Shown piece by piece: positions 1,659-19,517 of a stretch of DNA of 52,859 nucleotides. A program made the position numbers and the translations under genes. Position 1 is the first letter of the stretch, and each line of letters starts with the position of its first letter. The DNA is taken from IMG/VR virus record IMGVR_UViG_2909303794_000004, one strand, 5' to 3'. Below the pieces are notes generated by a model. That model was not told the DNA's origin. It did not search any database and saw nothing but the letters and a program-made list of their open reading frames with translations. Origin of the DNA: a virus (Duplodnaviria > Heunggongvirae > Uroviricota > Caudoviricetes).

Positions 1659-4130
1659 TTAAGAATCAGCCTGACTCGGGATCAGTTTTTGCCAGATAAC
1701 TGAAACGTATTTTGCCTGGTAACGGGCGTCATCAAGTGCATTATGGCGCTCACCTTCGAATGGAATAGCCGTTCTGGCATCGAAGTCTATGGCTTTCCCC
1801 AGCTCAACGATTGTGCGTACATCGCGATCGTTGTAGTAACGCCACGGGCAGGGGATCCCCTGCCGTTCGTATGAACGGCGCAAAATCGTGTTGTCGAAGT
1901 TGGCTCCATTTCCCCAAACCTGAACAAAAAATTCACCGGAGTTTTCGTCGATAAATTCCCGCAATTGTAACAGTGCATCATCTAACGGGATTTCATCGGT
2001 CATAATGGCAGATTGCGCTTCGCGTGATTGCTTAAGCCACCATTTAATGGTGTCCCGATCAATGACTCCGCCAGCAGTTTCCAGATCGATAGTCTTACTA
2101 AATTCCGGTCCCATATCTCCGGTTTGCGGATCGAAAAATATTGCACCTATTGAGATGATCGGGGCATCAGGATTTTTTCCCATGGTTTCAAGGTCGATCA
2201 TTAGATGGTCACACGTCCTGCTGGTGGATGTGATTTCGTGATGACCGTTCACCTTAATTGAGTGATCTGCCGTCTCGCCAGTTTCATTATCGCTATTGTG
2301 ATGCTGATTGCCGCCAGTGTTCTCCTTGTGTGGATGTTCAGCGCCTTCCATTTCCTCCAGATCATCTTCCTGAACTTCAACCTGATACTCTTCATCGAAT
2401 GTTTCCTGGTATGTTGCGTCGCCCATCACCGCGCCACAATCAGGGCAGTTGCCGCCGCCGGTCTGACCGCAGGCGGTGCAGACTTTTTCCACTTCCAGTT
2501 GCGCCACTGGTTCAGGCTGTTTCGTTTCTGGCTCGTTTTGTAACGCATTTGTGCTGTTTTGTTCCGCTTTTTGGTAGTTCCGTTCCGATTCATGCTGGTT
2601 CTGGTTCACAGAATCGCGGGTCTGGATCCCCTTAACCCATTTCGGATCATTCGGGTCACTAATCCCTTCAACAAATTCACCACGTGATGCAGCAAGCAAC
2701 TTATCGGCGTCAGGCTGGCTGATATTGGCTGCCTGCATAATTTTGTTTACTTCGTCAGCGGTAACTTTTATCGGCTCTGGTTGTTCTGAATCTTCAGCGG
2801 TATCTACATTTTGCGGTAAGCCCGTGTATGTGCCATTTTTTCGGGCAAAATATTCTTCTTTTGTGATTTCAGTGGCGCCAGCAGCCAGTGCCTTATCCAG
2901 ACCAGAAAGTTTGTTTGCGCGACCGTATTTTTCTCCGTCCTTATCTGCGAAGAGGAAATAGAACGGCCCCTCACGCTCTACAGATGGTTCAGCTTCCGGC
3001 GCGGTTTCATTTTTTGGGATATCAGATACCTCAGTTTCCACTGCATCAGTTTGTGTTTCTGATGACTGGAGAACATCAACAGTGCCCAGGTCTGTTTCTT
3101 CATTCTCAAACACGCCCTTTGTCGTCAGGTATTCGCAGATATATTTGTTCAGTGCTATGGGATCTTTGTGAATGTCGATCGGACGCTCACGGACAAGGCC
3201 AAAAATAGTCTGGCGGTCGTAGCGAAGGGCATCAGGCTGTTTGCGCATTGATGCCGAGATACGCTTCCAGTCTTCGCGGTCGTTGTCGATAACTTCTTTT
3301 TTTGCCCAGCGATGGATGCTGCCGTCAATGTTTCCGGCATCCACATCACCAGGCCAGAGAGCGTAGGCCAGTTCGTCATCCAGTGTTTTCCATGTCTGCT
3401 TGTATTCGCGATGAATGGCAGCAATGACCGGGCTGATTTTTCCTGTTGAATTTTCAGTGTACTGTTGATTGGTTCTGGCGCGGGCGAGATCAACAACAGA
3501 CGTGTATTTTCCGGTTTCCTTGCGTTCACCTTCGCGACGTTTTTTCCAGATGCGCATCTCTGCCTGAATTTCGGGCCATTTAGCACCAGGAATACATTTA
3601 TGCTTAACCCACCCAATGGCGTGCAACTTAAGCTCCGGATACATGGCGTTAACTTCTGGCATTTTCATCAACGCTTCAACGATATGTCCGTCGAATGTTG
3701 CCATGTCTTCCTGCAACAATTCCTGTGCGCTAATAACCATATCAACGGTGATGTTTTCACATGTGTCGAACTTAACCATGACAGCGTTCTGTACTTCAGG
3801 GGCCAGCTTGTCAAAAGTGACGTTCATCGGATCGGATTCAGTCTCAACCGGGACAAAAGAAGCAGACTCCTCATCCCAGCGGTTTTCCTGCATATATTCA
3901 GCATCCCATGAATCGAGGGCAGGGCGGGGTATACCGGGTTTATCCTCGCAAACAAGAAATTTATAAGCGCAGTCCTGAGCAGCCGGATAATGTTCCAGGA
4001 ACTGCCAGTGAAATTTTGCTCGAGCACGGCGTTCGTCGCCAGCTTCAATGGCTGTGGCTACAGCCACAGCGCCTTCTTCCCTTGTTGCCAGTTCGTCAGG
4101 AATAGCGGCGCAAATAAAGACTTTACTCAT
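1659..4130 (-). CDS. large exonuclease-family protein: C-terminal DEDDh (DnaQ-like) 3'-5' exonuclease domain, central CxxC…CxxC zinc ribbon
   Basis: 823-aa ORF; C-terminus shows the three exonuclease motifs (DLETMG; NGANFDNTIL; HNALDDARYQ); zinc ribbon CTACGQTGGGNCPDCG mid-protein; sits in the early-left operon where lambdoid recombination exonucleases lie; probably the intact form of the truncated K-12 ydfE. Confidence 0.8.
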   Translation of the reverse strand: MSKVFICAAIPDELATREEGAVAVATAIEAGDERRARAKFHWQFLEHYPAAQDCAYKFLVCEDKPGIPRPALDSWDAEYMQENRWDEESASFVPVETESDPMNVTFDKLAPEVQNAVMVKFDTCENITVDMVISAQELLQEDMATFDGHIVEALMKMPEVNAMYPELKLHAIGWVKHKCIPGAKWPEIQAEMRIWKKRREGERKETGKYTSVVDLARARTNQQYTENSTGKISPVIAAIHREYKQTWKTLDDELAYALWPGDVDAGNIDGSIHRWAKKEVIDNDREDWKRISASMRKQPDALRYDRQTIFGLVRERPIDIHKDPIALNKYICEYLTTKGVFENEETDLGTVDVLQSSETQTDAVETEVSDIPKNETAPEAEPSVEREGPFYFLFADKDGEKYGRANKLSGLDKALAAGATEITKEEYFARKNGTYTGLPQNVDTAEDSEQPEPIKVTADEVNKIMQAANISQPDADKLLAASRGEFVEGISDPNDPKWVKGIQTRDSVNQNQHESERNYQKAEQNSTNALQNEPETKQPEPVAQLEVEKVCTACGQTGGGNCPDCGAVMGDATYQETFDEEYQVEVQEDDLEEMEGAEHPHKENTGGNQHHNSDNETGETADHSIKVNGHHEITSTSRTCDHLMIDLETMGKNPDAPIISIGAIFFDPQTGDMGPEFSKTIDLETAGGVIDRDTIKWWLKQSREAQSAIMTDEIPLDDALLQLREFIDENSGEFFVQVWGNGANFDNTILRRSYERQGIPCPWRYYNDRDVRTIVELGKAIDFDARTAIPFEGERHNALDDARYQAKYVSVIWQKLIPSQADS

Positions 4131-6584: not shown

Positions 6585-7089
6585 ACAGGCTCGTGAGGCT
6601 CTGGATGCCTGGATATGTCGACCAGGAATGACACAGGAGCAGGCGACGATATTAATCACTGAAGCATTCTGGGCTTTGAAAGAGCGCCCGAACATCGATG
6701 TTCAGCGTGTCACAGATGAAGGTGGTGCGGTTGATCAGCGAGCGCTTGGTGTTAATCGAGTGAAGATATTCGAACGCTGGAAGGCTATCGACACCAGGGA
6801 TAAGCGTGAAAAGTTCACGGCGCTAGTGCCTGCGATTATGGAGGCTATCCGGATTAGTGATTTCAGGTTGTATCGTGAAATTACTGACGGAAAAAGCATC
6901 ACGTGCATGATCGCCGGGTTAAACAAAGAATATGGCGATGTGGTGGAGTCCGGACTGCTTTTTGCTGATCCTGCCGTAGTGGATCGTGAAACTGACGAAC
7001 TTATAGAAAAAGCAATTGCTTTCAAGCTTGCGTATCGACAGCAATACCAACAAAAAGCTGGATGGAATTATGAGCCTTCTTTTTGCTGA
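6568..7089 (+). CDS. hypothetical early regulatory protein, possibly YdaT/CII-like
   Basis: 173-aa ORF directly after the Cro-like gene and before the replication gene, the cII position; family assignment is a guess from memory. Confidence 0.45.
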   Translation: MKITPEQAREALDAWICRPGMTQEQATILITEAFWALKERPNIDVQRVTDEGGAVDQRALGVNRVKIFERWKAIDTRDKREKFTALVPAIMEAIRISDFRLYREITDGKSITCMIAGLNKEYGDVVESGLLFADPAVVDRETDELIEKAIAFKLAYRQQYQQKAGWNYEPSFC

Positions 7090-7990
7090 ACGCCCACTGG
7101 TTATAAACACGCAGCTGGCAATGAAAATTGGCTTAAACGAAGCCATTGTTTTGCAACAACTGCACTACTGGTTGAGAGATACCAACTCCGGCATGGAATG
7201 TGATGGTGTTCGCTGGATTTATAACACAACGGAACAATGGCTGGAACAGTTCCCATTCTGGTCAGAGTCAACGTTAAAGCGCGCGTTTGCAAGTCTGAAA
7301 ACGCTGGGGCTTTTGCGTTGTGAAAAGCTCAATAAATCAAAGCGCGATATGACCAATTTCTACACGATCAACTATGGGAGCGAGCTTTTAGATGGTGGCA
7401 AATTGAGCGAATCCATCGGTTCAAAATGCGCCGCTCCATCAGGTCAAAATGACACGATGGAAGAGGTCAAAATGAAACGCTCCATTGGTTCAAAACGACC
7501 CAATGTCATCGGGTCAAAATGGCCTGATGATCTTACAGAGAATACAACAGAGATTACTACAGAGAATAAAAACACTTTTCGTCCGGAAGCTTCGCAACCG
7601 GACCCGCAGACGACTGAACAGGATTCTTTAACCCGGAACTCCGACGCGGTTGTGTTTAGTGCGAAAAAACGCCAGTGGGGTAGCAGGGAGGATTTGGCGT
7701 GTGCGCAGTGGATCTGGGGGCGGATCGTGGGTCTCTACGAACAGGCAGCCAGTGATGATGGCGAGATCATGCGACCAAAAGAGCCTAACTGGACTGCCTG
7801 GGCCAATGACGTGCGCACAATGCGGATGCTGGATGGCAGAAGCCACAGACAAATTTGCGAAATGTTTGGTCGGGTTCAGCGAGATCCATTCTGGGTAAAA
7901 AACATCATGAGCCCGTCAAAGCTCCGCGAAAAAAAAATGGGACGAACTGGTCATCCGCCTGGGACGTTCACCTGTACAGCGTTGTGTTAA
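7070..7990 (+). CDS. phage replication initiation protein (lambda O analogue) with origin iterons inside the gene
   Basis: 306-aa ORF in the O position; N-terminal HTH-like domain; central region encodes a repeated IGSK motif generated by iterons. Confidence 0.75.
   Translation: MSLLFAERPLVINTQLAMKIGLNEAIVLQQLHYWLRDTNSGMECDGVRWIYNTTEQWLEQFPFWSESTLKRAFASLKTLGLLRCEKLNKSKRDMTNFYTINYGSELLDGGKLSESIGSKCAAPSGQNDTMEEVKMKRSIGSKRPNVIGSKWPDDLTENTTEITTENKNTFRPEASQPDPQTTEQDSLTRNSDAVVFSAKKRQWGSREDLACAQWIWGRIVGLYEQAASDDGEIMRPKEPNWTAWANDVRTMRMLDGRSHRQICEMFGRVQRDPFWVKNIMSPSKLREKKMGRTGHPPGTFTCTALC
7411..7523 (+). repeat. candidate replication origin: five direct ~18-bp iterons (consensus TCCATCNGGTCAAAATG) at 23-24 bp spacing, followed by an A-rich tract
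   Basis: repeats at about 7411, 7435, 7458, 7480 and 7505 read directly; A-rich ACAGAGAATA-type segment at 7530-7575; same arrangement as lambda ori inside O. Confidence 0.6.
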
Positions 7991-8079
7991 TCATATTTCT
8001 GAACCGGATACAGAAATTCCGCCTGGTTTCAGAGGATAAGTGTTGATTTCAGGTCATGAGGTAATTTTAAGGGGGACTT

Positions 8080-8502
8080 GTGGCAAAAGTTTTTACACAA
8101 GAAGAGCGGGAAAAAATTAAATGGCAGGTGGTGGAACTCGTGCGCCAGAGCGGCCGTGAGACGTTACGGCAACTGGAAGCTAAAACAGGTGCGACTAGAT
8201 ATCTGATGAGCGTTCTTGCCAGAGAGCTGGTAGCCAGTGGCGATGTATACAACTCCGGCTACGGGTTATTCCCCTCTGAACAGGCGCGTAAGGACTGGCA
8301 AAACGCCCGCAAAAAACTCTCGAGGGCAAAGGTGAAGAAACCTGCTGTGGTTGATCCGGACCTTATCTGGTCATCACCTGACGGAGAAATACGTCGCTAC
8401 GACAGTCGCCTAAACATAATCTGTCGCGAGTGCCGGAAGAGCGAAGTTATGCAGCGCATACTGGCTTTCTATCAGGGTAATTTTCAGGACGTGGCGCAGT
8501 GA
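8080..8502 (+). CDS. hypothetical phage protein (140 aa)
   Basis: GTG start 7 nt after a strong Shine-Dalgarno (AAGGGGGA); occupies the position of lambda P but is too small and unlike a helicase loader. Confidence 0.55.
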   Translation: MAKVFTQEEREKIKWQVVELVRQSGRETLRQLEAKTGATRYLMSVLARELVASGDVYNSGYGLFPSEQARKDWQNARKKLSRAKVKKPAVVDPDLIWSSPDGEIRRYDSRLNIICRECRKSEVMQRILAFYQGNFQDVAQ

Positions 8503-8844
8503 GTGCACCGGCAACCATTCTTGATATGTGCTGTGGCAGCCGCATGTTCTGGTTCGATAAGTCTGACGAACGGGCGATATTCAGCGATATCAGAAAAGAA
8601 GGATACACATTACGCAATGGGAGACGCTTGATTATCAGCCCTGACATTATCGCAGATTTTCGTGCATTATCATTTGCAGACGCATCTTTTTCGATGGTTG
8701 TATTAGACCCTCCGCATCTTGAGAGTGTTGGTGATAACGCCTGGATGGGAAAGAAATATGGACGGCTGAATAAAGATGCCTGGCGTGATGATTCGCGACA
8801 GAGATTTAAAGAAGCCTTTCGGGTGTTGAGGCCGCACGGCGTAC
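8499..8844 (+). pseudogene. DNA methyltransferase gene, 3' end removed by IS insertion
   Basis: SAM-binding motif ILDMCCGS and a DPPH(L) motif; reading frame runs into the IS629-like left end at 8845. Confidence 0.65.
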
Positions 8845-8898
8845 TGAACCGCCCCGGGAATCCTGGAGACTAAACTCCCTGAGAAAGAGGTAAACAGG

Positions 8899-9225
8899 AT
8901 GACTAAAAATACACGTTTTTCCCCCGAGGTCCGTCAACGGGCAGTTCGTATGGTTCTGGAAAGTCAGGGCGAATATGACTCTCAATGGGCGGCAATTTGT
9001 TCCATTGCCCCAAAGATTGGCTGTACACCAGAGACTCTGCGTGTGTGGGTTCGTCAGCATGAGCGGGATACCGGGAGTGGTGATGGTGGACTCACCACCG
9101 CTGAACGTCAGCGTCTGAAAGAGCTGGAACGTGAAAATCGTGAACTGCGCCGCAGTAACGATATCCTTCGCCAGGCTTCCGCTTATTTTGCGAAGGCGGA
9201 GTTCGACCGCCTCTGGAAAAAATAA
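8899..9225 (+). CDS. IS3-family transposase OrfA (108 aa)
   Basis: [50 protein letters not shown]… matches remembered IS629 OrfA. Confidence 0.9.
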
Positions 9226-10112
9226 TGCCGCTGCTGGATAAGCTGCGTGAGCAGTACGGGGTCGGACCGGTATGCAGTGAACTGCATATTGCCCCGTCAA
9301 CGTATTACCACTGTCAGCAACAGCGACATCATCCTGATAAACGCAGTGCCCGTGCTCAGCGCGATGACTGGCTGAAGAGAGAGATACAGCGCGTATACGA
9401 TGAAAATCATCAGGTGTACGGTGTGCGTAAAGTCTGGCGCCAGTTGTTACGCGAAGGTATCAGGGTGGCCAGATGTACAGTGGCGCGCCTCATGGCGGTT
9501 ATGGGACTTGCCGGTGTTCTCCGGGGTAAAAAGGTCCGTACTACCGTCAGCCGGAAAGCCGTTTCCGCAGGCGACCGCGTAAACCGTCAGTTCGTGGCAG
9601 AACGTCCTGACCAGCTGTGGGTGGCTGATTTTACTTACGTCAGCACATGGCAGGGCTTCGTCTATGTGGCGTTCATCATTGATGTGTTTGCCGGATGTAT
9701 CGTGGGGTGGCGAGTCTCATCGTCTATGGAAACGACATTCGTGCTGGATGCACTGGAGCAGGCGTTGTGGGCCCGTCGGCCGTCCGGCACAGTCCATCAC
9801 AGTGATAAAGGTTCTCAGTATGTATCACTGGCCTATACGGAGCGACTAAAAGAAGCAAAACTGCTGGCATCAACAGGGAGTACAGGTGACTCGTATGACA
9901 ACGCGATGGCGGAGAGCATCAATGGTCTTTACAAAGCGGAGGTAATACACCGTAAGAGCTGGAAAAACCGTGCAGAAGTGGAACTGGCCACACTCACGTG
10001 GGTGGACTGGTATAACAATCGACGATTGCTGGGAAGGCTGGGTCATATCCCTCCGGCAGAAGCAGAAAAAGCTTATTATGCTTCCATCAGAAACGATGAT
10101 CTGGCAGCCTGA
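9225..10112 (+). CDS. IS3-family transposase OrfB (DDE domain)
   Basis: 295-aa ORF overlapping orfA in the -1 frame near an A-run, typical of IS3-family OrfAB. Confidence 0.9.
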   Translation: MPLLDKLREQYGVGPVCSELHIAPSTYYHCQQQRHHPDKRSARAQRDDWLKREIQRVYDENHQVYGVRKVWRQLLREGIRVARCTVARLMAVMGLAGVLRGKKVRTTVSRKAVSAGDRVNRQFVAERPDQLWVADFTYVSTWQGFVYVAFIIDVFAGCIVGWRVSSSMETTFVLDALEQALWARRPSGTVHHSDKGSQYVSLAYTERLKEAKLLASTGSTGDSYDNAMAESINGLYKAEVIHRKSWKNRAEVELATLTWVDWYNNRRLLGRLGHIPPAEAEKAYYASIRNDDLAA

Positions 10113-10778
10113 GTTCACAGATAAAACACTCTCCAGGAAAACCGGGGCGGTTCATTCTGATTTTTTAATGGAATGAAACGCAAATACCGGTAAGCCAGAT
10201 TCTGGCACTGACAGACAGAAAACCTGTTATCTGTCAACGAACAGGGAAAAAACGATAAAACCCACTGGATTATTTTTATGAAAGAGGCATCCAGTGAGTA
10301 GATTCGTAAGGCTACAGATACGTATATCTGAATAATTAAATTCAGTTCTGTAAATAAAATTTAATCCTTAACCGGATGGATTTCTGCACCCTCAGAACAT
10401 CAGGAGGCCGCCCGAAAGGGCGGTAGTGAAATGCGAAAGTTCAAAATTATTATTGAAACGGGAATAGCTGGTGGAGATTTTGAGGATGTATTCGAAGTGG
10501 ACGATGACGCAACACCTGAGGAAATTCATGACGGAGCATAAGAAATTTTCTTTAACTACTGCAATTACTCATACCACGAAATAAAAGACGATGAGGAAGA
10601 ACAAAGTGGCTGATTTTTGTTCAGCTAAATATAACATCAGTTTTGAAGAGCGGGATGAACTATTAATGGACTATGGTGAGTTACGCGGTGGAAGTGCTGC
10701 TGATGTCGAATCCTAGCGTGATGACTATGAAGCGGGAAAAACTCCGGTCGAAGCATATTGTGATGAGTGGGGCGATGA

Positions 10779-11108
10779 ATGAGCGAGATTAATTATCAGG
10801 AAGGGCATGAAACGGCGGGGCAAGCAAAACCAGTGGCATGGCGATATCGCTACGTGAAAAAAGGCGTTACGGACTTTCAGGGGAAGTAGTGGTCTGGTGA
10901 CTGGAAATATGTACCGAAAAAAGAGGATTGTAACGACAGGCCGAACTATCAAATTCAGGCCTTATTCACTGCCTCACCAGTCCCAGTTACATCAGAAGAA
11001 CTGGTTAAAGCTGTGCACTTTTATGAACAACTAAAACGCGAAAATCCACCAACATCCGGCAACAAGATTAATGGATTAACTATGTCGGTTAAACGACCAG
11101 CCAACTGA
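10779..11108 (+). pseudogene. decayed ORF with in-frame amber codon
   Basis: MSEINYQEGHETAGQAKPVAWRYRYVKKGVTDFQGK, then TAG at 10887-10889, then 72 further in-frame codons; upstream short ORFs show serial +1 frame changes and an in-frame TAA at 10539-10541. Confidence 0.3.
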
Positions 11109-11320
11109 AAAAGCGGAAACCTGATTACAGGTTGCCAGATAAGGCAATGAGCTACCTGGCGCGGAACGGACTGATAAGTATGGGGAATGTTTTACGATGA
11201 ACCTTTAGACTAAAGAGTTTGTAACGCTATGTAAGTGATTTTTTCTGGTTTAGATATTTATATGTCCGGCCAAATTGAGGTGTGTTTAAATGTAATTGCA
11301 CATTGATTGTAGGAGGAATA

Positions 11321-11500
11321 ATGAAAAACGCATTGCAGTTTTTGTTTGTTGCGTTCTGGTTGTTCGCATCATGTATGCCCATCATCTTCACAGCAAGGTA
11401 TATGGAAAAAGTTGATGTTTTGATATTAATATTTGGATATATAAATGCCCTTTTTTTAGGGGTGTTCATGGCGGTCATGTGCATTGAATACTGGCGGTAA
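11321..11500 (+). CDS. small hydrophobic membrane protein (59 aa, two predicted TM helices)
   Basis: ATG 7 nt after a perfect AGGAGG; MKNALQFLFVAFWLFASCMPIIFTARYMEKVDVLILIFGYINALFLGVFMAVMCIEYWR. Confidence 0.45.
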   Translation: MKNALQFLFVAFWLFASCMPIIFTARYMEKVDVLILIFGYINALFLGVFMAVMCIEYWR

Positions 11501-11855
11501 ATACAGCGAACTCCATTGGTTTAGTTGGATATTTACTGTGCTGGACAAAAACGGTTTGCGGGGAAATCTTAGTTAAGTAGAATGACTGCGGGTGCTTGAG
11601 GCTATCTGCCTCGGGCATGGACACCAACGGCAGATAGAGAAAAGCCCCAGTTAACATTACGCGTCCTGCAAGACGCTTAACATTAATCTGAGGCCAATTT
11701 CATGCTAGACACATGTAGGTTAGCCTCTTACGTGCCGAAAGGCACGGAGAAGCAGGCTATTGTTAACACCAAGCTGTAATGTCCCCTTTGAACCATTCTA
11801 AAATGTCCCCAGACAATTCTCTGGGGGATTTTTCATAATCAAAGAGACTGTTACG

Positions 11856-13148
11856 ATGAGTCATAAGGAACTCCACCGACTTCAGATTATTCAGGAACAA
11901 GCTGCGGCACGCATTGGCATTTCTATTCGGCAGGTTAAACGTCTGGTGCAACGGTATAGAAATGAAGGGCCTTCTGGTCTGGTTTCCCACCGACGTGGAA
12001 AGCGTCCTAATAATTCCTTTTCTACTGAATTCAGAGCAACAGTAATTTCACTCCTCAAAGGCCGTTACGCTGATTTTGGACCTACGTTTGCGTGCGAAAA
12101 ATTGCGCGAGATACACGGTTTATCTTTATCCGTTGAAACTCTCAGAAAGTGGATGATAGAAGAGGGGTTATGGCGTGAACGCCGTCGTAAAATTGCCCGT
12201 ATATATCAACGCCGCATGCGACGACCATCTTACGGTGAACTGATCCAGATTGATGGCTCACCTCATGACTGGTTTGAAAATCGAGGCCCCAGATGTACAC
12301 TGATCGTTTTCATTGATGATGCCACCAGTGCGTTGATGGCGTTGCGTTTTGTGCCTGCTGAAACAACCCGGGCTTACATGGAAACCCTCCGGGGTTACCT
12401 TAATGATCATGGCGTACCGCTCGCTCTCTACTCTGATAGACACAGTATATTCAGGGTAAATAACCCAGAGCGGGAAGGTGAGCTGACCCAGTTCACTCGT
12501 GCGATAAAGACACTGGGCATCGAGCCAATCCATGCCAACAGCCCGCAGGCAAAAGGGCGGGTAGAGCGCGCCAATCAGACACTACAGGACAGGCTGGTCA
12601 AAGAAATGCGGCTTCAGAATATCAGTGATATTGAAACAGCAAATGCATGGTTGCCGACCTTTATTGAAGCCTATAACAACCGGTTCGCTACGTCGCCTCG
12701 TACTACTGATAATGCTCATCTTGATGTGCACCATTCTGAAGAGGAACTGGGTTATATCTTCAGCCTACAGGCGAAGCGCGTTCTGTCTAAAAATCTCACT
12801 TTCCAGTACAAAAGCAGTGCGTTTCAGGTACGCAGTGAGGGCCGGGGATATCGACTTAGGCATTCGGTTGTTACTGTATGCGAGAACTTTGACGGTGAAA
12901 TTAACGTTCTGTATGACGGGAAAGCGCTGGGCTGGGAAAAGTATGTTGATGGCCCGGAGCCTATACCACTGGATGATGAAAAGAGTGTCCATGAACGAGT
13001 GGATAATGCCCGTATTGATTTACGCTCAAAATACTATGTTAAACCTAAAGCTGACCATCCCTGGCTTACGCGCCGAACGCAAAGTCATCAGCAAGTTAAG
13101 CCCCCGAAGTTACCTAAAAAGAAGCCTGATCCCGATAAAAAAGATTGA
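11856..13148 (+). CDS. DDE (rve-type) transposase with N-terminal HTH, IS481-family-like
   Basis: 430-aa ORF; HTH followed by integrase core (…IDDATSA…YSDRHSIF…HANSPQAKGRVERANQTL…); element ends not resolved. Confidence 0.8.
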   Translation: MSHKELHRLQIIQEQAAARIGISIRQVKRLVQRYRNEGPSGLVSHRRGKRPNNSFSTEFRATVISLLKGRYADFGPTFACEKLREIHGLSLSVETLRKWMIEEGLWRERRRKIARIYQRRMRRPSYGELIQIDGSPHDWFENRGPRCTLIVFIDDATSALMALRFVPAETTRAYMETLRGYLNDHGVPLALYSDRHSIFRVNNPEREGELTQFTRAIKTLGIEPIHANSPQAKGRVERANQTLQDRLVKEMRLQNISDIETANAWLPTFIEAYNNRFATSPRTTDNAHLDVHHSEEELGYIFSLQAKRVLSKNLTFQYKSSAFQVRSEGRGYRLRHSVVTVCENFDGEINVLYDGKALGWEKYVDGPEPIPLDDEKSVHERVDNARIDLRSKYYVKPKADHPWLTRRTQSHQQVKPPKLPKKKPDPDKKD

Positions 13149-13584
13149 AACCAAGATCGATTCGGTTGAGTGCATATCCATTCATAGGGTAGATTCTTAA
13201 GTCGCGTTTCTGGTGTTCATTTTCGGGTGGTTTGTTACTTGTTTTACCGGGGATATGCCAGAAACGCGCTGAGTCAGTCTGGGCGGTGCGCGTAATGAGG
13301 CGTTATGGTAAATAGCCTATGCTAATGTCCGCTAAGAGCAAGAAGCGGAAGTTGGCAGTTTTGTGGACTGTCCCCACAAAAGTGACTACAGAAATAGTTG
13401 CAATTCATAATTGATCATGGGTTGTCAGTTAAACTCGTGGCGATTTAAATAGACTAATTGGGAGTGCGTCCATTACTTATATCTTGTAATGTTAACTATC
13501 AGAAATGATACAAAGATAATATGTCTTTAAAGAAAAGGCTGATGGCGAAAAGTGGCCCGATGAGGGCCACAATACGGCTGTCAC

Positions 13585-13692
13585 TTAGACGTAAATATCA
13601 ATGGTGCCAGCGGTATTTGTATCGTCTTTTTTCTCTTCTTTTTTATCAGGCTGAACTGTCGCGTCTTCATTCTTTTTCTCTGCCTGCTGCCT
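13585..13692 (-). pseudogene. flxA: flxA 3' fragment (C-terminal 35 codons) separated by ISEc8-like insertion
   Basis: reading frame is continuous with 16143-16367 once the IS and one duplication copy are removed, giving a 110-aa FlxA. Confidence 0.75.
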
Positions 13693-13771
13693 TAACAACT
13701 GTAAGCGTACAGCCTGAACCGTCTGGTCAGAATCTGACGAATTAGACAAAGTGGTGTCCACCAAATAAGTA

Positions 13772-14173
13772 GTGGGAACCAAAGTGTCAGATATGCAGAA
13801 AAATGTGACTCCCGGCAGGCGAAAAGGCTGCCCTAATTATCCTCCCGAATTTAAACAGCAGCTCGTTGCTGCCTCCTGTGAACCCGGGATATCCATCTCA
13901 AAACTTGCTCTTGAAAATGGCATTAACGCCAATCTGTTGTTCAAATGGCGACAACAATGGCGCGAGGGAAAGCTGCTATTACCTTCTTCAGAGAGCCCCC
14001 AGCTACTTCCTGTGACTCTCGATGCAGCTGCCGAACAGCCAGAATCGCTCGCAGAGGACCCGGAAACCCTCAGTATCAGCTGTGAGGTAACGTTCCGGCA
14101 CGGGACGCTCCGCTTCAATGGCAATGTCAGCGAAAAGCTCCTGACTCTGCTGATACAGGAACTGAAGCGATGA
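13772..14173 (+). CDS. IS66-family accessory protein (orf1)
   Basis: first ORF of the IS66-type three-gene set. Confidence 0.8.
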   Translation: MGTKVSDMQKNVTPGRRKGCPNYPPEFKQQLVAASCEPGISISKLALENGINANLLFKWRQQWREGKLLLPSSESPQLLPVTLDAAAEQPESLAEDPETLSISCEVTFRHGTLRFNGNVSEKLLTLLIQELKR

Positions 14174-14517
14174 TCCCGTTACCTTCCGGGACCAAAATTT
14201 GGCTGGTTGCCGGTATCACCGATATGAGAAATGGCTTCAACGGCCTGGCTGCGAAAGTACAGACGGCGCTGAAAGACGATCCCATGTCCGGCCATGTTTT
14301 CATTTTCCGGGGCCGCAGCGGCAGTCAGGTTAAACTGCTGTGGTCCACCGGTGACGGGCTGTGCCTCCTGACCAAACGGCTGGAGCGTGGGCGCTTCGCC
14401 TGGCCGTCAGCCCGTGATGGCAAAGTGTTCCTTACGCAGGCGCAGCTGGCGATGCTGCTGGAAGGTATCGACTGGCGACAGCCTAAGCGGCTGCTGACCT
14501 CCCTGACCATGCTGTAA
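14170..14517 (+). CDS. IS66-family accessory protein (orf2)
   Basis: 115-aa ORF overlapping orf1 by ATGA, typical of IS66. Confidence 0.85.
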
Positions 14518-14566
14518 ATCTCTTTATCCTGGTTGTCACAGAATAAGCCCGGTAAAATACGGGCTT

Positions 14567-16105
14567 ATGAACGACATCTCTTCTGACGACATCTTCCTGC
14601 TGAAACAGCGCCTGGCCGAACAGGAAGCGCTGATCCACGCCCTGCAGGAAAAGCTGAGCAACCGGGAGCGCGAAATAGACCATCTGCAGGCGCAGCTGGA
14701 TAAACTCCGCCGGATGAACTTCGGCAGTCGTTCCGAAAAAGTCTCCCGCCGTATCGCACAAATGGAAGCCGATCTGAACCGGCTTCAGAAAGAGAGCGAT
14801 ACGCTGACTGGTAGGGTGTATGACCCGGCAGTACAGCGTCCGTTGCATCAGACCCGCACCCGTAAGCCGTTCCCTGAATCACTACCCCGTGACGAAAAGC
14901 GACTGTTGCCTGCGGCGCCGTGCTGCCCGAACTGCGGCGGTTCACTGAGCTATCTGGGCGAGGATACCGCCGAACAGCTGGAGTTGATGCGTAGCGCCTT
15001 CCGGGTTATCCGGACGGTACGGGAAAAACATGCCTGTACTCAGTGCGATGCCATCGTGCAGGCACCTGCACCTTCGCGGCCCATCGAGCGGGGTATCGCC
15101 GGACCGGGGCTGCTGGCCCGCGTGCTGACCTCGAAGTATGCAGAGCACACCCCGCTGTATCGCCAGTCAGAAATATACGGCCGGCAAGGTGTGGAGCTGA
15201 GCCGTTCACTGCTGTCGGGCTGGGTGGATGCATGCTGCCGGCTGCTGTCTCCGCTGGAAGAGGCGCTTCATGGCTATGTCATGACTGACGGCAAACTCCA
15301 TGCCGATGATACCCCGGTCCAGGTACTGCTGCCGGGTAATAAGAAGACGAAGACCGGGCGGTTGTGGGCGTATGTTCGTGATGACCGCAATGCCGGGTCA
15401 GCGTTGGCACCTGCAGTGAGGTTCGCTTACAGCCCGGACAGAAAAGGCATCCATCCGCAGGCTCATCTTGCTTGCTTCAGCGGTGTGCTGCAAGCGGATG
15501 CGTACGCCGGGTTCAACGAGCTGTATCGCAATGGTGGGATAACGGAAGCTGCCTGCTGGGCTCATGCCCGCCGAAAGATCCACGATGTGCACGTCCGCAT
15601 CCCGTCAGCACTGACGGAAGAAGCCCTGGAGCAGATCGGTCAGTTGTACGCCATAGAGGCGGATATAAGGGGAATGCCGGCAGAGCAGCGGCTTGCTGAA
15701 CGTCAGCGAAAAACGAAACCGCTGTTGAAATCCCTGGAAAGCTGGTTGCGTGAAAAGATGAAGACCCTGTCGCGACACTCAGAGTTGGCGAAGGCGTTCG
15801 CGTACGCACTTAACCAGTGGCCGGCACTGACGTACTATGCGAACGATGGCTGGGTGGAAATCGACAACAACATCGCTGAAAATGCCCTGCGGGCGGTCAG
15901 TCTGGGTCGTAAAAACTTCCTGTTCTTCGGCTCTGACCATGGTGGTGAGCGGGGAGCGCTACTGTACAGCCTGATCGGGACGTGCAAACTGAATGACGTG
16001 GATCCAGAAAGCTACCTTCGCCATGTGCTTGGCGTCATAGCAGACTGGCCGGTCAACCGGGTCAGCGAACTGCTTCCGTGGCGCATAGCACTGCCAGCTG
16101 AATAA
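14567..16105 (+). CDS. IS66-family transposase (orf3)
   Basis: 512-aa ORF with N-terminal coiled-coil/leucine zipper and cysteine cluster (CPNCG…CTQCD), typical of IS66 transposases. Confidence 0.9.
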
Positions 16106-16142
16106 CACATCCCCGTCAATACGGCCCTCGCTGTACGCTTAC

Positions 16143-16367
16143 TAACAACTGCTCCAGTTGAGCCCAGAGGCTTTCAATTTGCTTCTGTACCAATGCAGCC
16201 ATTTCTTTTTTCTGCTGTGTCGTCATCCCCTCTTCCGATGAGATTTTCCCAAGCTTTTCAGTCAGCACCTGAATTTGTCTTGTGATTTTGGCTATTTCTG
16301 ATGTTCCTTCCGGGGCGGAGTTGTTTGAAATAACGGTTGAGGTATTTCCCTGAATTGTGACAGACAT
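16143..16367 (-). pseudogene. flxA: flxA 5' fragment (N-terminal 75 codons)
   Basis: MSVTIQGNTSTVISNNSAPEGTSEIAKITRQIQVLTEKLGK… matches remembered FlxA; reads into the ISEc8 right end. Confidence 0.8.
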
Positions 16368-16390
16368 AGATTTCTCCTTTTAAAAAAGCA

Positions 16391-16417
16391 CTATCGGCAT
16401 GCACAAAAAAATCTTTA
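16391..16417 (-). promoter_or_regulatory. sigma-28 (FliA) type promoter upstream of flxA
   Basis: minus strand reads TAAAGATT-N11-GCCGATAG against consensus TAAAGTTT-N11-GCCGATAA; about 25 nt upstream of the flxA start. Confidence 0.65.
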
Positions 16418-16569
16418 ATCGTATTTCTTGTGTCATTAATTGTTTGATGTTCAGATTGTTTTCCTCGCGGGCTGGCGCGCCTCAGAAAGTAAAGCTTGTT
16501 GACAGGGGTAAACGTTCGGCAATAATTTTCTGCCGCATGCGGGTGTTGCATAAAACGTGCTACGTTCCT

Positions 16570-16875
16570 TTATCGACAGGTCAGGTCACCGCTCACCCGC
16601 CGACGAGAAAGCAACACTGACATGCTAAAGCAAAAAATAGATGAATAAGTTGAGTTGTGCATATGTAGCCTGACCGTCACAAAGTATATGGTGTCTGTAC
16701 CAGTAAGATGATGGCCGGACTCTTTAAAAACGAGCTGACCTGCACAATACAGGATGGACTTAGCAATGGCTGCTCCTGGCACAAAGCGGACAGTGATCAC
16801 CGTTCTTACGACTACTTTCTGACTTCCTTCGTGACTTGCCCTAAGCATGTTGTAGTGCGATACTTGTAATGACAT
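16570..16875 (-). CDS. ydfV: YdfV-like hypothetical ORF (101 aa), doubtful
   Basis: ORF of the size and position of K-12 ydfV between flxA and relB; composition not convincingly protein-like. Confidence 0.3.
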   Translation of the reverse strand: MSLQVSHYNMLRASHEGSQKVVVRTVITVRFVPGAAIAKSILYCAGQLVFKESGHHLTGTDTIYFVTVRLHMHNSTYSSIFCFSMSVLLSRRRVSGDLTCR

Positions 16876-16887
16876 TTGTAATTACAA
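16864..16887 (+). promoter_or_regulatory. relBE operator-like repeats (TTGTAATGACATTTGTAATTACAA)
   Basis: palindromic TTGTAAT repeats immediately upstream of the relB start. Confidence 0.55.
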
Positions 16888-16899
16888 GAGGTGTAAGAC

Positions 16900-17139
16900 A
16901 TGGGTAGCATTAACCTGCGTATTGACGATGAACTTAAAGCGCGTTCTTACGCCGCGCTTGAAAAAATGGGTGTAACTCCTTCTGAAGCGCTTCGTCTCAT
17001 GCTCGAGTATATCGCTGACAATGAACGCTTGCCGTTCAAACAGACACTCCTGAGTGATGAAGATGCTGAACTTGTGGAGATAGTGAAAGAACGGCTTCGT
17101 AATCCTAAGCCAGTACGTGTGACGCTGGATGAACTCTGA
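16900..17139 (+). CDS. relB: RelB antitoxin (79 aa)
   Basis: MGSINLRIDDELKARSYA…NPKPVRVTLDEL matches remembered RelB. Confidence 0.9.
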   Translation: MGSINLRIDDELKARSYAALEKMGVTPSEALRLMLEYIADNERLPFKQTLLSDEDAELVEIVKERLRNPKPVRVTLDEL

Positions 17140-17426
17140 TGGCGTATTTTCTGGATTTTGACGAGCGGGCACTAAAGGAATGGCGAAAGCTGGGCTCGAC
17201 GGTACGTGAACAGTTGAAAAAGAAGCTGGTTGAAGTACTTGAGTCACCCCGGATTGAAGCAAACAAGCTCCGTGGTATGCCTGATTGTTACAAGATTAAG
17301 CTCCGGTCTTCAGGCTATCGCCTTGTATACCAGGTTATAGACGAGAAAGTTGTCGTTTTCGTGATTTCTGTTGGGAAAAGAGAACGCTCGGAAGTATATA
17401 GCGAGGCGGTCAAACGCATTCTCTGA
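17139..17426 (+). CDS. relE: RelE mRNA-interferase toxin (95 aa)
   Basis: MAYFLDFDERALKEWRKLGSTVREQLKKKL…; start overlaps the relB stop. Confidence 0.9.
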   Translation: MAYFLDFDERALKEWRKLGSTVREQLKKKLVEVLESPRIEANKLRGMPDCYKIKLRSSGYRLVYQVIDEKVVVFVISVGKRERSEVYSEAVKRIL

Positions 17427-17497
17427 ACCAAAGCATGACATCTCTGTTTCGCACCGAAGGTGACACTTCTGCTTTGCGTTGACAGGAGAAGCAGGCT

Positions 17498-17653
17498 ATG
17501 AAGCAGCAAAAGGCGATGTTAATCGCCCTGATCGTCATCTGTTTAACCGTCATAGTGACGGCACTGGTAACGAGGAAAGACCTCTGCGAGGTACGAATCC
17601 GAACCGGCCAGACGGAGGTCGCTGTCTTCACAGCTTACGAACCTGAGGAGTAA
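17498..17653 (+). CDS. hokD: Hok-family membrane toxin HokD/RelF (51 aa)
   Basis: manual translation MKQQKAMLIALIVICLTVIVTALVTRKDLCEVRIRTGQTEVAVFTAYEPEE; below the ORF-track size cutoff. Confidence 0.85.
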   Translation: MKQQKAMLIALIVICLTVIVTALVTRKDLCEVRIRTGQTEVAVFTAYEPEE

Positions 17654-17721
17654 GAGACCCGGCGGGGGAGAAATCCCTCGCCACCTCTGATGTGGCAGGC
17701 ATCCTCAACGCACCCGCACTT

Positions 17722-17748
17722 AACCCGCTTCGGCGGGTTTTTGTTTTT
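17722..17748 (+). terminator. intrinsic terminator after relBE-hokD
   Basis: AACCCGCTTCGGCGGGTTTTTGTTTTT hairpin plus T-run. Confidence 0.6.
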
Positions 17749-17869
17749 ATTTTCAACGCGTTTGAAGTTCTGGACGGTGCCGGAATAGAATCAAAAATAC
17801 TTAAGTAGCGCGCAGGGATAAGAGGGATGGTCCCTTAAAGGGGAGAGCTAATTATCCGGAAGGATTCTG

Positions 17870-18121
17870 ATGATGAACATCGAAGAACTGCGTAAAATTT
17901 TTTGTGAAGAGGGCCTCTATGCTGTGTGCGTTGAAAATGGAAATCTTGTTAGTCATTACCGCATTATGTGTTTGCGAAAGAATGGGGCTGCGTTAATTAA
18001 TTTTGTGGATGCTCGGGTCACGGACGGATTTATCTTGCGCGAAGGTGAGTTTGTCACTTCATTACAGGCATTGAAAGAGATCGGAATAAAAGCTGGCTTT
18101 TCTGCTTTTTCAGGAGAATAA
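17870..18121 (+). CDS. rem: Rem-like small protein (83 aa)
   Basis: 83-aa ORF in the K-12 rem position between hokD and ydfU. Confidence 0.6.
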   Translation: MMNIEELRKIFCEEGLYAVCVENGNLVSHYRIMCLRKNGAALINFVDARVTDGFILREGEFVTSLQALKEIGIKAGFSAFSGE

Positions 18122-18187
18122 ACTCATCTACAATCTTGCGCGGGGCTGAACTCCCGCTGAGTAACACCGTGCCACCGGAGAAAACCG

Positions 18188-18466
18188 ATGGCACGCAACG
18201 CAAAATATTACAATTCTGATAATTCGCCCGTTCTTGCCTGCACGCACGGGCGGTATTCTCACGCATTCAAGTCTGAATGGTTCCAGCACCCTCCATGCAC
18301 TGCAGAACAGGCCGAATGGCTGATTCATTCTTACCGCAGGCGCGGGTTCGAGGTTAAGAAAGCTCTCAGTCTCGACTATCGGCACTGGATAATCTCTGTC
18401 AGGCTGCCTTATTCCGAACGCCCACCACGTGCGTCCCGCACTTTCCAGCAACGGATCTGGAGGTAA
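18188..18466 (+). CDS. hypothetical protein (92 aa) translationally coupled to ydfU
   Basis: GGAG 7 nt upstream of ATG; stop TAA at 18464-18466 lies 1 nt before the ydfU GTG start and inside its Shine-Dalgarno. Confidence 0.5.
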   Translation: MARNAKYYNSDNSPVLACTHGRYSHAFKSEWFQHPPCTAEQAEWLIHSYRRRGFEVKKALSLDYRHWIISVRLPYSERPPRASRTFQQRIWR

Positions 18467-18467
18467 C

Positions 18468-19517
18468 GTGCGGGTATTACTTAGACCTGTTCTGGTGCCT
18501 GAGCTTGGGCTGGTGGTCCTTAAGCCGGGCCGTGAATCCATACAGATATTTCATAATCCTCGAGTGCTGGTGGAACCGGAACCAAAAAGCATGCGTAATC
18601 TGCCATCCGGAGTCGTTCCTGCCGTTCGCCAGCCGCTGGCGGAAGACAAAACATTGCTGCCGTTTTTTAGTAACGAACGGGTGATTCGTGCTGCTGGCGG
18701 CGTTGGCGCATTGTCCGACTGGCTATTACGTCATGTTACATCCTGCCAGTGGCCTAATGGCGATTACCATCACACTGAAACAGTCATTCACCGTTATGGT
18801 ACCGGCGCAATGGTGTTGTGCTGGCACTGCGACAACCAACTGCGTGACCAGACATCGGAATCACTGGAGCTGCTTGCTCAACAAAATCTGACAGCATGGG
18901 TGATTGACGTCATCCGTCACGCAATAAGCGGTACGCAGGAGCGGGAATTATCTTTGGCTGAATTATCCTGGTGGGCGGTCTGCAATCAGGTGGTGGATGC
19001 ACTACCTGAGGCTGTATCGCGTCGTTCGCTGGGATTACCAGCGGAAAAAATCTGCTCGGTGTACCGCGAAAGCGACATCGTACCGGGAGAGCAGACCGCC
19101 ACCAGCATATTGAAACAACGCACAAAAAATCTTGCACCGTTGCCTTACGCCCACCAGCAACAAAAATCACCACAGGAAAAGACGGTGGTAAGCATCACCG
19201 TTGATCCAGAGTCTCCGGAATCTTTCATGAAGCTGCCTAAACGTCGCCGCTGGGTTAAGGAGAAATACACACGTTGGGTTAAGACACAGCCGTGTGCTTG
19301 CTGCGGTATGCCAGCCGACGATCCGCATCATCTGATTGGTCACGGGCAGGGCGGAATGGGAACAAAAGCACATGATCTCTTTGTGTTGCCTTTGTGCAGA
19401 AAGCATCACAACGAGCTGCATACGGATACAGTGGCATTTGAAGAGAAGTATGGCTCCCAACTGGAGCTGATATTTCGTTTTATCGATCGCGTGCTGGCAA
19501 TTGGCGTACTGGCGTAA
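18468..19517 (+). CDS. ydfU: YdfU-like protein (349 aa) with C-terminal HNH-like Cys/His motif
   Basis: GTG start 5 nt after GGAGGT gives 349 aa; C-terminus CACCGMPADDPHHLIGHG…HDLFVLPLCRKHHNELH resembles an HNH nuclease motif. Confidence 0.65.
   Translation: MRVLLRPVLVPELGLVVLKPGRESIQIFHNPRVLVEPEPKSMRNLPSGVVPAVRQPLAEDKTLLPFFSNERVIRAAGGVGALSDWLLRHVTSCQWPNGDYHHTETVIHRYGTGAMVLCWHCDNQLRDQTSESLELLAQQNLTAWVIDVIRHAISGTQERELSLAELSWWAVCNQVVDALPEAVSRRSLGLPAEKICSVYRESDIVPGEQTATSILKQRTKNLAPLPYAHQQQKSPQEKTVVSITVDPESPESFMKLPKRRRWVKEKYTRWVKTQPCACCGMPADDPHHLIGHGQGGMGTKAHDLFVLPLCRKHHNELHTDTVAFEEKYGSQLELIFRFIDRVLAIGVLA

Follow-up and report, generated by a model that had tools for sequence, protein, structure and literature searches.

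How does a type I toxin–antitoxin (TA) locus of the hok/sok kind come to have its mRNA leader and its toxin open reading frame (ORF) 5.7 kb apart? The question is raised by positions 10155-11850 of the 52,859-nt stretch of viral DNA analyzed here (the window, to which all coordinates refer unless a locus is named), where a hok leader runs into the end of a transposon. We propose a joint explanation, put forward as a single claim and considered very probable: the stretch would combine decayed genes of a Qin-type prophage remnant, an intact gene for a 59-aa membrane protein, and a hok/sok locus split by a relBE-carrying transposon. An initial annotation, made from the letters alone, had described a decayed accessory island with one well-signalled small membrane ORF in front of an IS481-like transposase, and had singled it out as the least explained part of the DNA. 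What it said of the pseudogenes and the small ORF is correct and, taken alone, of modest interest, the pseudogenes being ordinary. The stretch turns out to be largely explainable, its last 300 nt consisting of the hok promoter, leader, mok start and sok half, together with a target duplication and a transposon's left end. The hok/sok leader at 11590-11760 and the transposon end had gone unrecognized, and it is this 3' end that appears to hold the more interesting result, namely a relBE-carrying, hok-homing transposon of the IS1202 family and a likely origin of the relBEF operon.

The split hok/sok locus and the unit between its halves

The two halves of the locus and the unit that lies between them are laid out as follows (TSD, target-site duplication; SD, Shine–Dalgarno sequence).

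11554..11589, plus strand: putative hok promoter, read from the sequence, with a TTGCGG-like -35 element and a -10 element TAGAAT at 11578-11583, 7 nt before the leader start
11590..11760, plus strand: hok mRNA leader with the mok start and the Sok-complementary region (sok gene on the minus strand), orphaned from the toxin ORF
11746..11760, no strand: left copy of the 15-bp TSD, GGAGAAGCAGGCTAT, from the hok SD through the 'AT' of the ATG
11761..17484, plus strand: IS1202-family (ISEsa1) transposition unit with TGT...ACA ends and relB-relE at its right end
11856-13148, plus strand: degenerate transposase gene tnp (NF033594, E=7.2e-137)
13702-16142: secondary insertion of an IS66-family element in flxA (ORFs of 133, 115 and 512 aa)
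16570-16875, minus strand: ydfV
16900-17139, plus strand: relB (PF04221, E=1e-32)
17139-17426, plus strand: relE (PF05016, E=2.2e-13)
17485..17499, no strand: right copy of the 15-bp TSD, GGAGAAGCAGGCTAT, running into the hokD ATG (17498)
17498..17653, plus strand: hokD toxin ORF (51 aa; PF01848, E=1.2e-23), with the 3' region of the hok mRNA behind it, to ~17748

The Rfam model RF01794, a sok model built on the hok-leader strand, aligns over its positions 1-157 with 11590-11761 at 104.1 bits (gathering score 59), identifying a hok leader with its Sok-complementary region. This leader is 93% identical to that of the intact hok locus of phage vB_EcoS-640R1 (L002), the alignment ending at 'GGCTAT' (11760), and phage matches to the 3' part of the stretch carry hok/mok/sok annotation. 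When the intact L002 locus is aligned, its first part covers 11535-11760 and the remainder 17484-17748, the two overlapping by 16 nt; because the alignment resumes only there, 11590-11760 is a leader cut off from its own toxin. The mok ATG lies at 11703, 56 nt before the position of the hok ATG, and its frame enters the transposon end and stops after 25 codons. What the window shares with hok/sok loci of the type I class is the full-length RF01794 match, the mok start, a HOK_GEF toxin ORF and the 3' hok mRNA region. It differs in being split at the hok start codon, with a shortened mok that neither overlaps nor couples to hok, and with a toxin ORF that is not contiguous with the leader and stands as the third gene of a relBE operon, devoid of a Sok target.

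The hok promoter is assigned by position alone, as a consensus promoter scan did not call it; the -10 element of R1 hok, TATGAT, provides an analogy (PMC9841398). On the antisense strand, TAACCT and GTGCCT can be read to the left of the duplication and, by analogy with R1, are predicted to form the sok promoter. In R1, Sok-promoter mutations map to the dcb box, which precedes the hok SD (PMC9841398). On this comparison, the sok promoter should fall wholly within the retained half of the leader, and sok may well still be expressed. At 11740-11745, the window allele reads GGCAC before the duplication, compared with GGCAA in 15 other loci and in phage L002; in the antisense direction, this variant turns the putative sok -35 element TTGCCT into GTGCCT, possibly weakening the orphan sok promoter.

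What is the nature of the intervening unit? Its left end begins with TGTTAACACC... and contains two AATGTCCCC motifs, and its right end closes with ...GCGTTGACA. Within the 52.9-kb window, the best partner of the left-end 30-mer is the reverse complement that ends at 17484 (22/30, the next best reaching 20/30), and the ATGTC motif occurs twice near either terminus, with equal spacing (about positions 18-26 and 42-50). The unit therefore shows the imperfect inverted repeats with TGT...ACA termini and an inner repeat by which IS1202 elements are recognized, together with their large transposase combining a helix-turn-helix (HTH) and a DDE (rve) domain. The assignment of this transposase to IS481 in the initial annotation has to be replaced: the profile match identifies it as IS1202-family ISEsa1, and the tnp DNA is 98% identical to plasmid copies annotated as 'IS1202-like element ISEsa1 family transposase'. 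In the window, this gene has degenerated: 27 nt (9 aa) are deleted in the HTH region, and the upstream start has been lost. At the opposite end of the unit, RelB is followed by an overlapping gene for a toxin of the RelE/ParE fold (overlap at 17139), as in type II relBE systems. Two further features of the unit were noted. A terminator-like hairpin at 11806-11827 (TCCCCAGACAATTCTCTGGGGG, then a T-run) is located in the left end before the tnp start and could insulate tnp from read-through originating at the hok promoter. The IS66-family insertion is missing from K-12 and ATCC 8739, and its flanks overlap by ~9 nt, consistent with a target duplication.

Recurrence of the unit and its apparent targeting of hok

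Is the arrangement confined to this prophage? The end sequences were scanned against species-representative genomes, metagenomes and viral contigs. In plasmid copies, a common left part of 1.6 kb and a common right part of 0.7 kb (relB-relE and a 58-nt tail) bracket differing cargo. Complete units of 2.6, 3.3, 4.6, 6.1, 7.7 and 12.8 kb were found, always with relB-relE and with variable cargo of 1-11 kb, a range that does not describe a simple insertion sequence of 1.3-1.75 kb with one ORF. There are 27 distinct complete configurations with 15- or 16-bp duplications, and at the window and at least seven other sites the duplicated 15 or 16 bp are local sequence. A 3.3-kb unit on an Enterobacter IncF plasmid, for example, is flanked by GGAGAAGAAGGCCAT, and a 3.3-kb unit at a pndA-type gene of an E. 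coli IncI plasmid by TGGAGGGGCTATGAT. The IncI plasmid NZ_CP039299 carries an intact unit at 57310-60610, with a tnp of 446 aa. In the 12.8-kb unit of pMS7884B (L023, NZ_CP022534.1 105917-118759), the genes between tnp and relBE include ncrABCY (nickel), chrBA (chromate) and a HupE/UreJ gene. Transposase-related DNA is present in at least 5000 plasmids of PLSDB, mostly from Klebsiella.

The position of the unit relative to the hok leader is constant. From the T of the conserved TAGCC motif in the leader to the left end, the distance is always 40 or 41 nt, and in 7 further loci the left end coincides exactly with the end of a full-length match to the Rfam sok model. To the right, 34 distinct flanks have a verified relE tail, and ~24 of them open a Hok-family ORF, with at least 12 alleles represented; where such flanks were checked by profile, 7/7 matched PF01848. 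Empty sites exist as well: in 42 of 81 viral loci, the hok that comes after the 59-aa ORF is uninterrupted. These comparisons directly show the two ends, the duplication, the unoccupied site and the recurrence at other hok loci. Judging from them, the element appears to target hok initiation regions, and we infer that the transposase itself, or a partner, recognizes the hok leader. The collection also includes an insertion in inverse orientation at the same 15 bp (L018), head-to-tail double insertions that share one 15-bp repeat (L092, L100), and chimeric copies with flanks from two hok loci (L106, and L187, flanked by a pnd leader to the left and by hokD to the right). The double insertions show that there is no obvious target immunity, and the chimeras show that copies recombine with each other.

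Where is the right end of the element? The left 15-mer occurs behind relBE in 21 of 34 left-end contexts and in none of the 34 at the position expected for the end of a 1.6-kb solo insertion sequence. An ISfinder-style right end near 1609 bp was considered and rejected, the best inverted-repeat match there being only 12/22. At ~1590-1625 of the unit (window ~13325-13360; likewise ~1590-1625 of the unit in L009) we observed a palindrome, AATGTCCGC...GCGGACATT, that includes the inner end motif. This site is at once the end of the ISfinder ISEsa1 entry and the start of at least 8 different cargo segments, and the palindrome may be a vestigial or alternative right end.

In conjunction, these comparisons suggest the following history. 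A DDE element of the IS1202 family (ISEsa1 type), whose right-hand module is always relB-relE, would have inserted into the hok locus. A staggered cut of 15 bp, beginning 25 nt after TAGCC, would have placed it between the hok SD with the 'AT' and the G of the hok ATG. The insertion would have cut the Hok ORF off from its promoter, from translational coupling to mok and from regulation by Sok, and would have put this ORF directly behind the terminator-less relBE genes, giving rise to the relB-relE-hokD (relBEF) operon.

Proposed origin of the relBEF operon of K-12

In K-12 MG1655 (L292), everything that corresponds to window positions 6848-12963 has been lost in a single deletion, which brings the ydaT-like region up against the 3' end of the ISEsa1 tnp. 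The deletion fuses ydfX to this transposase end (ydfW), and with it have gone the small genes and the 59-aa ORF as well as the hok leader, together with the unit's left duplication and left end; because of this loss, the structure is hidden in the reference strain. The K-12 genes ydfX and ydfW, at or beside the deletion junction, are probably by-products of the deletion and not native genes. The order flxA-ydfV-relB-relE-hokD is the same in both, with 99.9% identity over window 16143-19000 and identical protein accessions for RelB and RelE. What the window retains in addition is the left side of the structure, from the hok leader through the left TSD and inverted repeat to the transposase. Compared with K-12, the presumed origin of the operon is visible only in the window-type copy.

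Relation to known elements

How does the unit compare with what has been described for its family? ISEsa1 is listed with 1609 bp, terminal inverted repeats of 15/22, a transposase of 439 aa and no detectable TSD, and represents a third subgroup of IS1202, while the ISAjo2/ISAba71 group of the same family targets dif/pdif sites (Harmer, Pong & Hall 2023, PMC10132070). In common with the family, the unit has a TnsB-like HTH and DDE transposase of ~446 aa and TGT...ACA ends, close to each of which the inner part of the inverted repeat recurs; it lies at a constant spacing from a conserved sequence and, like some members, carries passenger genes. Unlike its relatives, it appears to have as its target the hok translation-initiation region and not a Xer site, it is flanked by a TSD of 15-16 bp where none is reported for ISEsa1, and it continues past the 1609 bp of the ISfinder entry as far as relBE, behind which its right end lies, with cargo of 1-11 kb. 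Two further comparisons concern a likeness of logic only. As in Tn7, which inserts at attTn7 downstream of glmS, the offset from a recognized conserved sequence is fixed and the site is a 'safe' one, whereas the unit has no TnsA-, TnsC- or TnsD-like genes. As in ISEcp1-type units, one transposase end acts with a distal, surrogate end to mobilize adjacent genes; here, in contrast, the right end is constant and not picked ad hoc.

Literature searches on ISEsa1, on IS1202 with hok and on IS1202 with relB returned no description of the vehicle, its ends, the duplication or the targeting of hok, Ramisetty & Santhosh 2016 being represented there only through a citing paper. A 2026 survey of Hok likewise has no description of a relBE vehicle or of hok targeting.

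Could a rearrangement have split hok?

The inactivation of hokD has reportedly been ascribed to a major rearrangement by Pedersen and Gerdes in 1999. One may accordingly consider that hok was split without transposition, either by illegitimate or microhomology recombination or by integration of a relBE cassette, with the 15-bp repeat as the microhomology and with spread by homologous recombination through the hok flanks. The chimeric copies do indicate that recombination between copies occurs, and 'rearrangement' or 'integration' is all that the earlier literature is known to offer. We nevertheless regard this explanation as already disfavored and very improbable. Each of at least 8 sites has a duplication of its own local sequence on both sides, where homologous recombination would carry the donor's flanks along. 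The ends are constant to the nucleotide and form an imperfect inverted repeat with matching sub-terminal motifs, a DDE transposase always stands at the left end, and neither the inverse insertion at the same 15 bp nor the tandem double insertions agree with a rearrangement. Finally, the duplicated sequence is single-copy in L002 and in the 42 viral loci with an uninterrupted hok.

Several points weigh against a relBE transposon that homes to hok, or narrow it. Its transposition activity and target recognition are deduced from comparative footprints, and the probes were exact 19- and 26-mers, which sample only close relatives of the element. About 10 of the 34 right flanks are not hok; one such site (L007) has an imperfect duplication of 13/15 and looks like the 3' end of a gene with its terminator. 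In pMS7884B the right flank of the unit is hok, and the left flank is rearranged and has no matching duplication. Off-target insertions or later rearrangements thus exist. As observed among copies with a verified relE tail, the non-hok flanks include L007/L109 and the singletons L035, L041, L049, L054, L070, L075 and L110. With respect to the ends, the ISfinder entry of ISEsa1 measures 1609 bp and an inverted ATGTCC motif lies near that position, so that the relBE unit could be a derivative with a surrogate right end and not 'the' element. With respect to novelty, part of the outcome has been stated before: as quoted in a citing paper, the ancestral hokD ORF had ~70 codons and lost part of them when plasmid-derived relBE integrated (Ramisetty & Santhosh 2016, via Ramisetty & Sudhakari 2019, PMC6379469).

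A probable gene for a small two-helix membrane protein

Upstream of the orphaned leader lies the second subject of our joint explanation.

11321..11500, plus strand: intact gene for a 59-aa membrane protein, with AGGAGG at 11311-11316, 4 nt before the ATG

The product has two hydrophobic segments with a polar loop between them, and an AlphaFold2 model places helices at 2-27 and 30-58 (pLDDT 75). Neither Pfam, PHROGs nor NCBIfam gave a match, a word-indexed search of a large protein collection returned only E. coli/Shigella copies ('hypothetical protein') and fragments, and its literal peptide had no match in the literature searched. An exhaustive HMMER search of 1.84 billion representatives identified one informative distant homologue, P0039, which is exactly 59 aa long and 41% identical, with 21 invariant columns that include SCxPIIxT, FGxxNALxxGVF and IExWR. 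The P0039 contig (2 kb, 36% GC) has a remnant of a DUF977 gene upstream and a fragment of a hok ORF 55 nt downstream, and because P0039 sits between these two, the neighborhood of the gene is conserved. Among the viral loci, the ORF is intact in 81/81, in five alleles, and the three neighboring genes are variously broken in those same loci. The view of the initial annotation that this is a well-signalled small membrane ORF is hence upheld by its start signal, its two helices, its integrity in every copy examined and a homologue of the same length.

Is the ORF a gene, and if so, one that belongs to hok? On the sequence evidence we hold it to be highly likely that it is a real gene. A chance open frame in an AT-rich spacer (37% GC), with the interval from the phrog_660 pseudogene to hok non-coding, seems unlikely to us, even though several observations speak for it and against a gene. 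The NCBI pipeline PGAP leaves the ORF uncalled in ATCC 8739, one phage record annotates the opposite strand, no protein family matches, and a consensus scan found no sigma-70 promoter upstream. The 5 codon differences among close copies are all non-synonymous (conservative), and because none is synonymous, these copies give no dN/dS support. A chance frame would not, however, be expected to persist in a 41%-identical homologue that keeps the 59 codons, start, stop and 21 invariant residues on a contig of different composition whose flanking DNA cannot be aligned, nor to stay intact in every viral locus beside three broken genes, and the canonical AGGAGG-4 nt-ATG start and the confident two-helix model point the same way. 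It is also conceivable that the protein is a functional partner of hok/sok, as a second membrane toxin, an immunity protein or a modulator, and not an independent phage accessory gene. It stands directly upstream of hok in 42 E. coli prophage loci where hok is intact, as well as on the P0039 contig, and a scan from its stop (11500) to the hok promoter called no terminator. We consider such a partnership improbable: Rac-type prophages have an unrelated 87-aa ORF at that position beside hok, plasmid hok loci are without the gene, it is unchanged in 38 loci where hok has been split off, and with two helices and no matching antisense RNA family it is unlike the known type I toxins.

As a phage gene in its own right, it is probably transcribed with the early operon and not from a promoter of its own, because the upstream genes are all co-oriented and abutting. 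Its product would be a helical-hairpin protein of the inner membrane, most likely acting there, and belongs to a very narrow family. The two helices recall class II holins and pinholins, whose charged tail is lacking, the C-terminus being only EYWR; the gene is located between early accessory genes and hok, outside the lysis cassette, and the protein is not holin-like. An assignment to the type I toxins is not obvious either: the protein is small and hydrophobic but has two helices, and an Rfam search opposite the ORF matched no antisense RNA family. In L002, a deposited minus-strand ORF at 3343-3594, called 'hornerin', spans the gene and looks like an annotation artefact.

Prophage setting and decayed accessory genes

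The Qin cryptic prophage of E. coli ATCC 8739 and of many other strains matches the stretch at 99.9% identity, and at least 80% of it is present in 1242 complete genomes of the RefSeq set. In ATCC 8739, the counterpart has on one side dicA/dicC, ydaT-like, replication, DUF977 and methyltransferase genes, and on the other an 'ISNCY transposase', ydfW, flxA, ydfV, relB, relE and hokD. In overall terms, the region forms the final part of the early (replication-to-Q) accessory genes in a Qin-type cryptic lambdoid prophage. An IS629-like element at ~8848-10154 interrupts a gene for a class I SAM-dependent methyltransferase, and because of this interruption the stretch opens with the last 14 nt of that gene. 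Between these and the 59-aa gene lie three decayed genes.

10155..10168, plus strand: end of the methyltransferase gene (VLIF-stop), by alignment with the uninterrupted ATCC 8739 copy (L001)
10431..10613, plus strand: gene 1, a DUF7167 pseudogene, with an in-frame TAA at 10539-10541 where intact copies have AAA
10606..10782, plus strand: gene 2, a phrog_519-like pseudogene of 58 codons, with its start changed from ATG to GTG and a TAG at 10714-10716 where intact copies have TGG
10779..11200, plus strand: gene 3, a phrog_660-like pseudogene, with a TAG at 10887-10889, an internal deletion of ~90 nt and a frameshift near 11093-11099

Three separate genes are recognized at 10431-11200 when the stretch is compared with 81 viral contigs, with phage vB_EcoS-640R1 (L002) and with a Rac sequence (L003). 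Of the serial frame changes reported initially, the two at 10606/10611 and 10779/10780 are normal overlapping stop/start junctions between genes and not lesions; a genuine frameshift is found within gene 3. The two in-frame stops listed at the time, the TAA of gene 1 and the TAG of gene 3, are both present and in frame, and the TAG of gene 2 adds a third. The reading of the stretch as a decayed island is thereby borne out, its three ORF groups being pseudogenes that match PF23768/phrog_1997, phrog_519 and phrog_660.

For gene 1, the intact L002 homologue matches PF23768 (E=7.9e-15) and phrog_1997 (E=9e-31); an intact DUF7167 protein has ~60 aa, and the window copy stops with TAA at codon 37. 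A GC-rich hairpin at 10403-10433 (GCCGCCCGAAAGGGCGGT), conserved in L002 and L003, lies between an SD-like AGGAGG and the ATG of this gene, and its folding would draw the SD near the start. The intact form of gene 3 is a 171-aa protein (L213; E=4e-75) whose codon at 10887 is CAG or CCG. The deletion in the window falls between two ENPP repeats, and the true C-terminus ends at 11200. We also considered whether the 85-aa coding sequence deposited for L002 might be the intact gene, in which case an A-run would hold a frameshift in the window copy. This is ruled out by the 171-aa homologue and by alleles that stay open in the frame of the window; on these alignments L002 is the shifted copy and TAG 10887 a true nonsense codon. 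The deposited 85-aa coding sequence (L002 2950-3207) is a frameshift product and looks like an annotation artefact. On identical ATCC 8739 copies, PGAP reports 'DUF7167, internal stop' and 'hypothetical, frameshifted; internal stop'.

Intact counterparts belonging to ordinary nin-region genes with known functions would, according to the initial annotation, have counted against it. This applies by half: intact and ordinary homologues were found, and by their matches the three are ordinary accessory genes of the lambdoid early region, from families without an assigned function. Their loss through nonsense mutations, a deletion and a frameshift would represent neutral decay in a grounded prophage.

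Implications

What is the relevance of a transposon in the start codon of a toxin gene? The proposed insertion provides a concrete and testable origin for relB-relE-hokD, and would explain why hokD has no mok, sok or promoter of its own. ISEsa1 would have seemed to lack a TSD because its real right end lies past relBE, and hok initiation regions would constitute a second type of sequence-targeted insertion for the IS1202 family, beside dif sites. The 59-aa protein may join the growing catalogue of small membrane proteins that lack annotation, and is a fair candidate for a new small-protein family.

A wider reading, to which we would give an even chance, is that ISEsa1-type elements in general are relBE-armed transposons and not TSD-less 1.6-kb insertion sequences, that they home with single-nucleotide precision to the initiation regions of hok-family genes on plasmids and prophages, disarming the resident toxin and replacing its addiction function, that relBEF is the scar of one such event, and that the 59-aa protein stands for an undescribed family of small phage proteins. 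The element moves nickel and chromate resistance genes on plasmids of Enterobacterales, and its target rule would help to predict where such cargo lands. If this reading is true, a transposon carrying one addiction module lands inside another.

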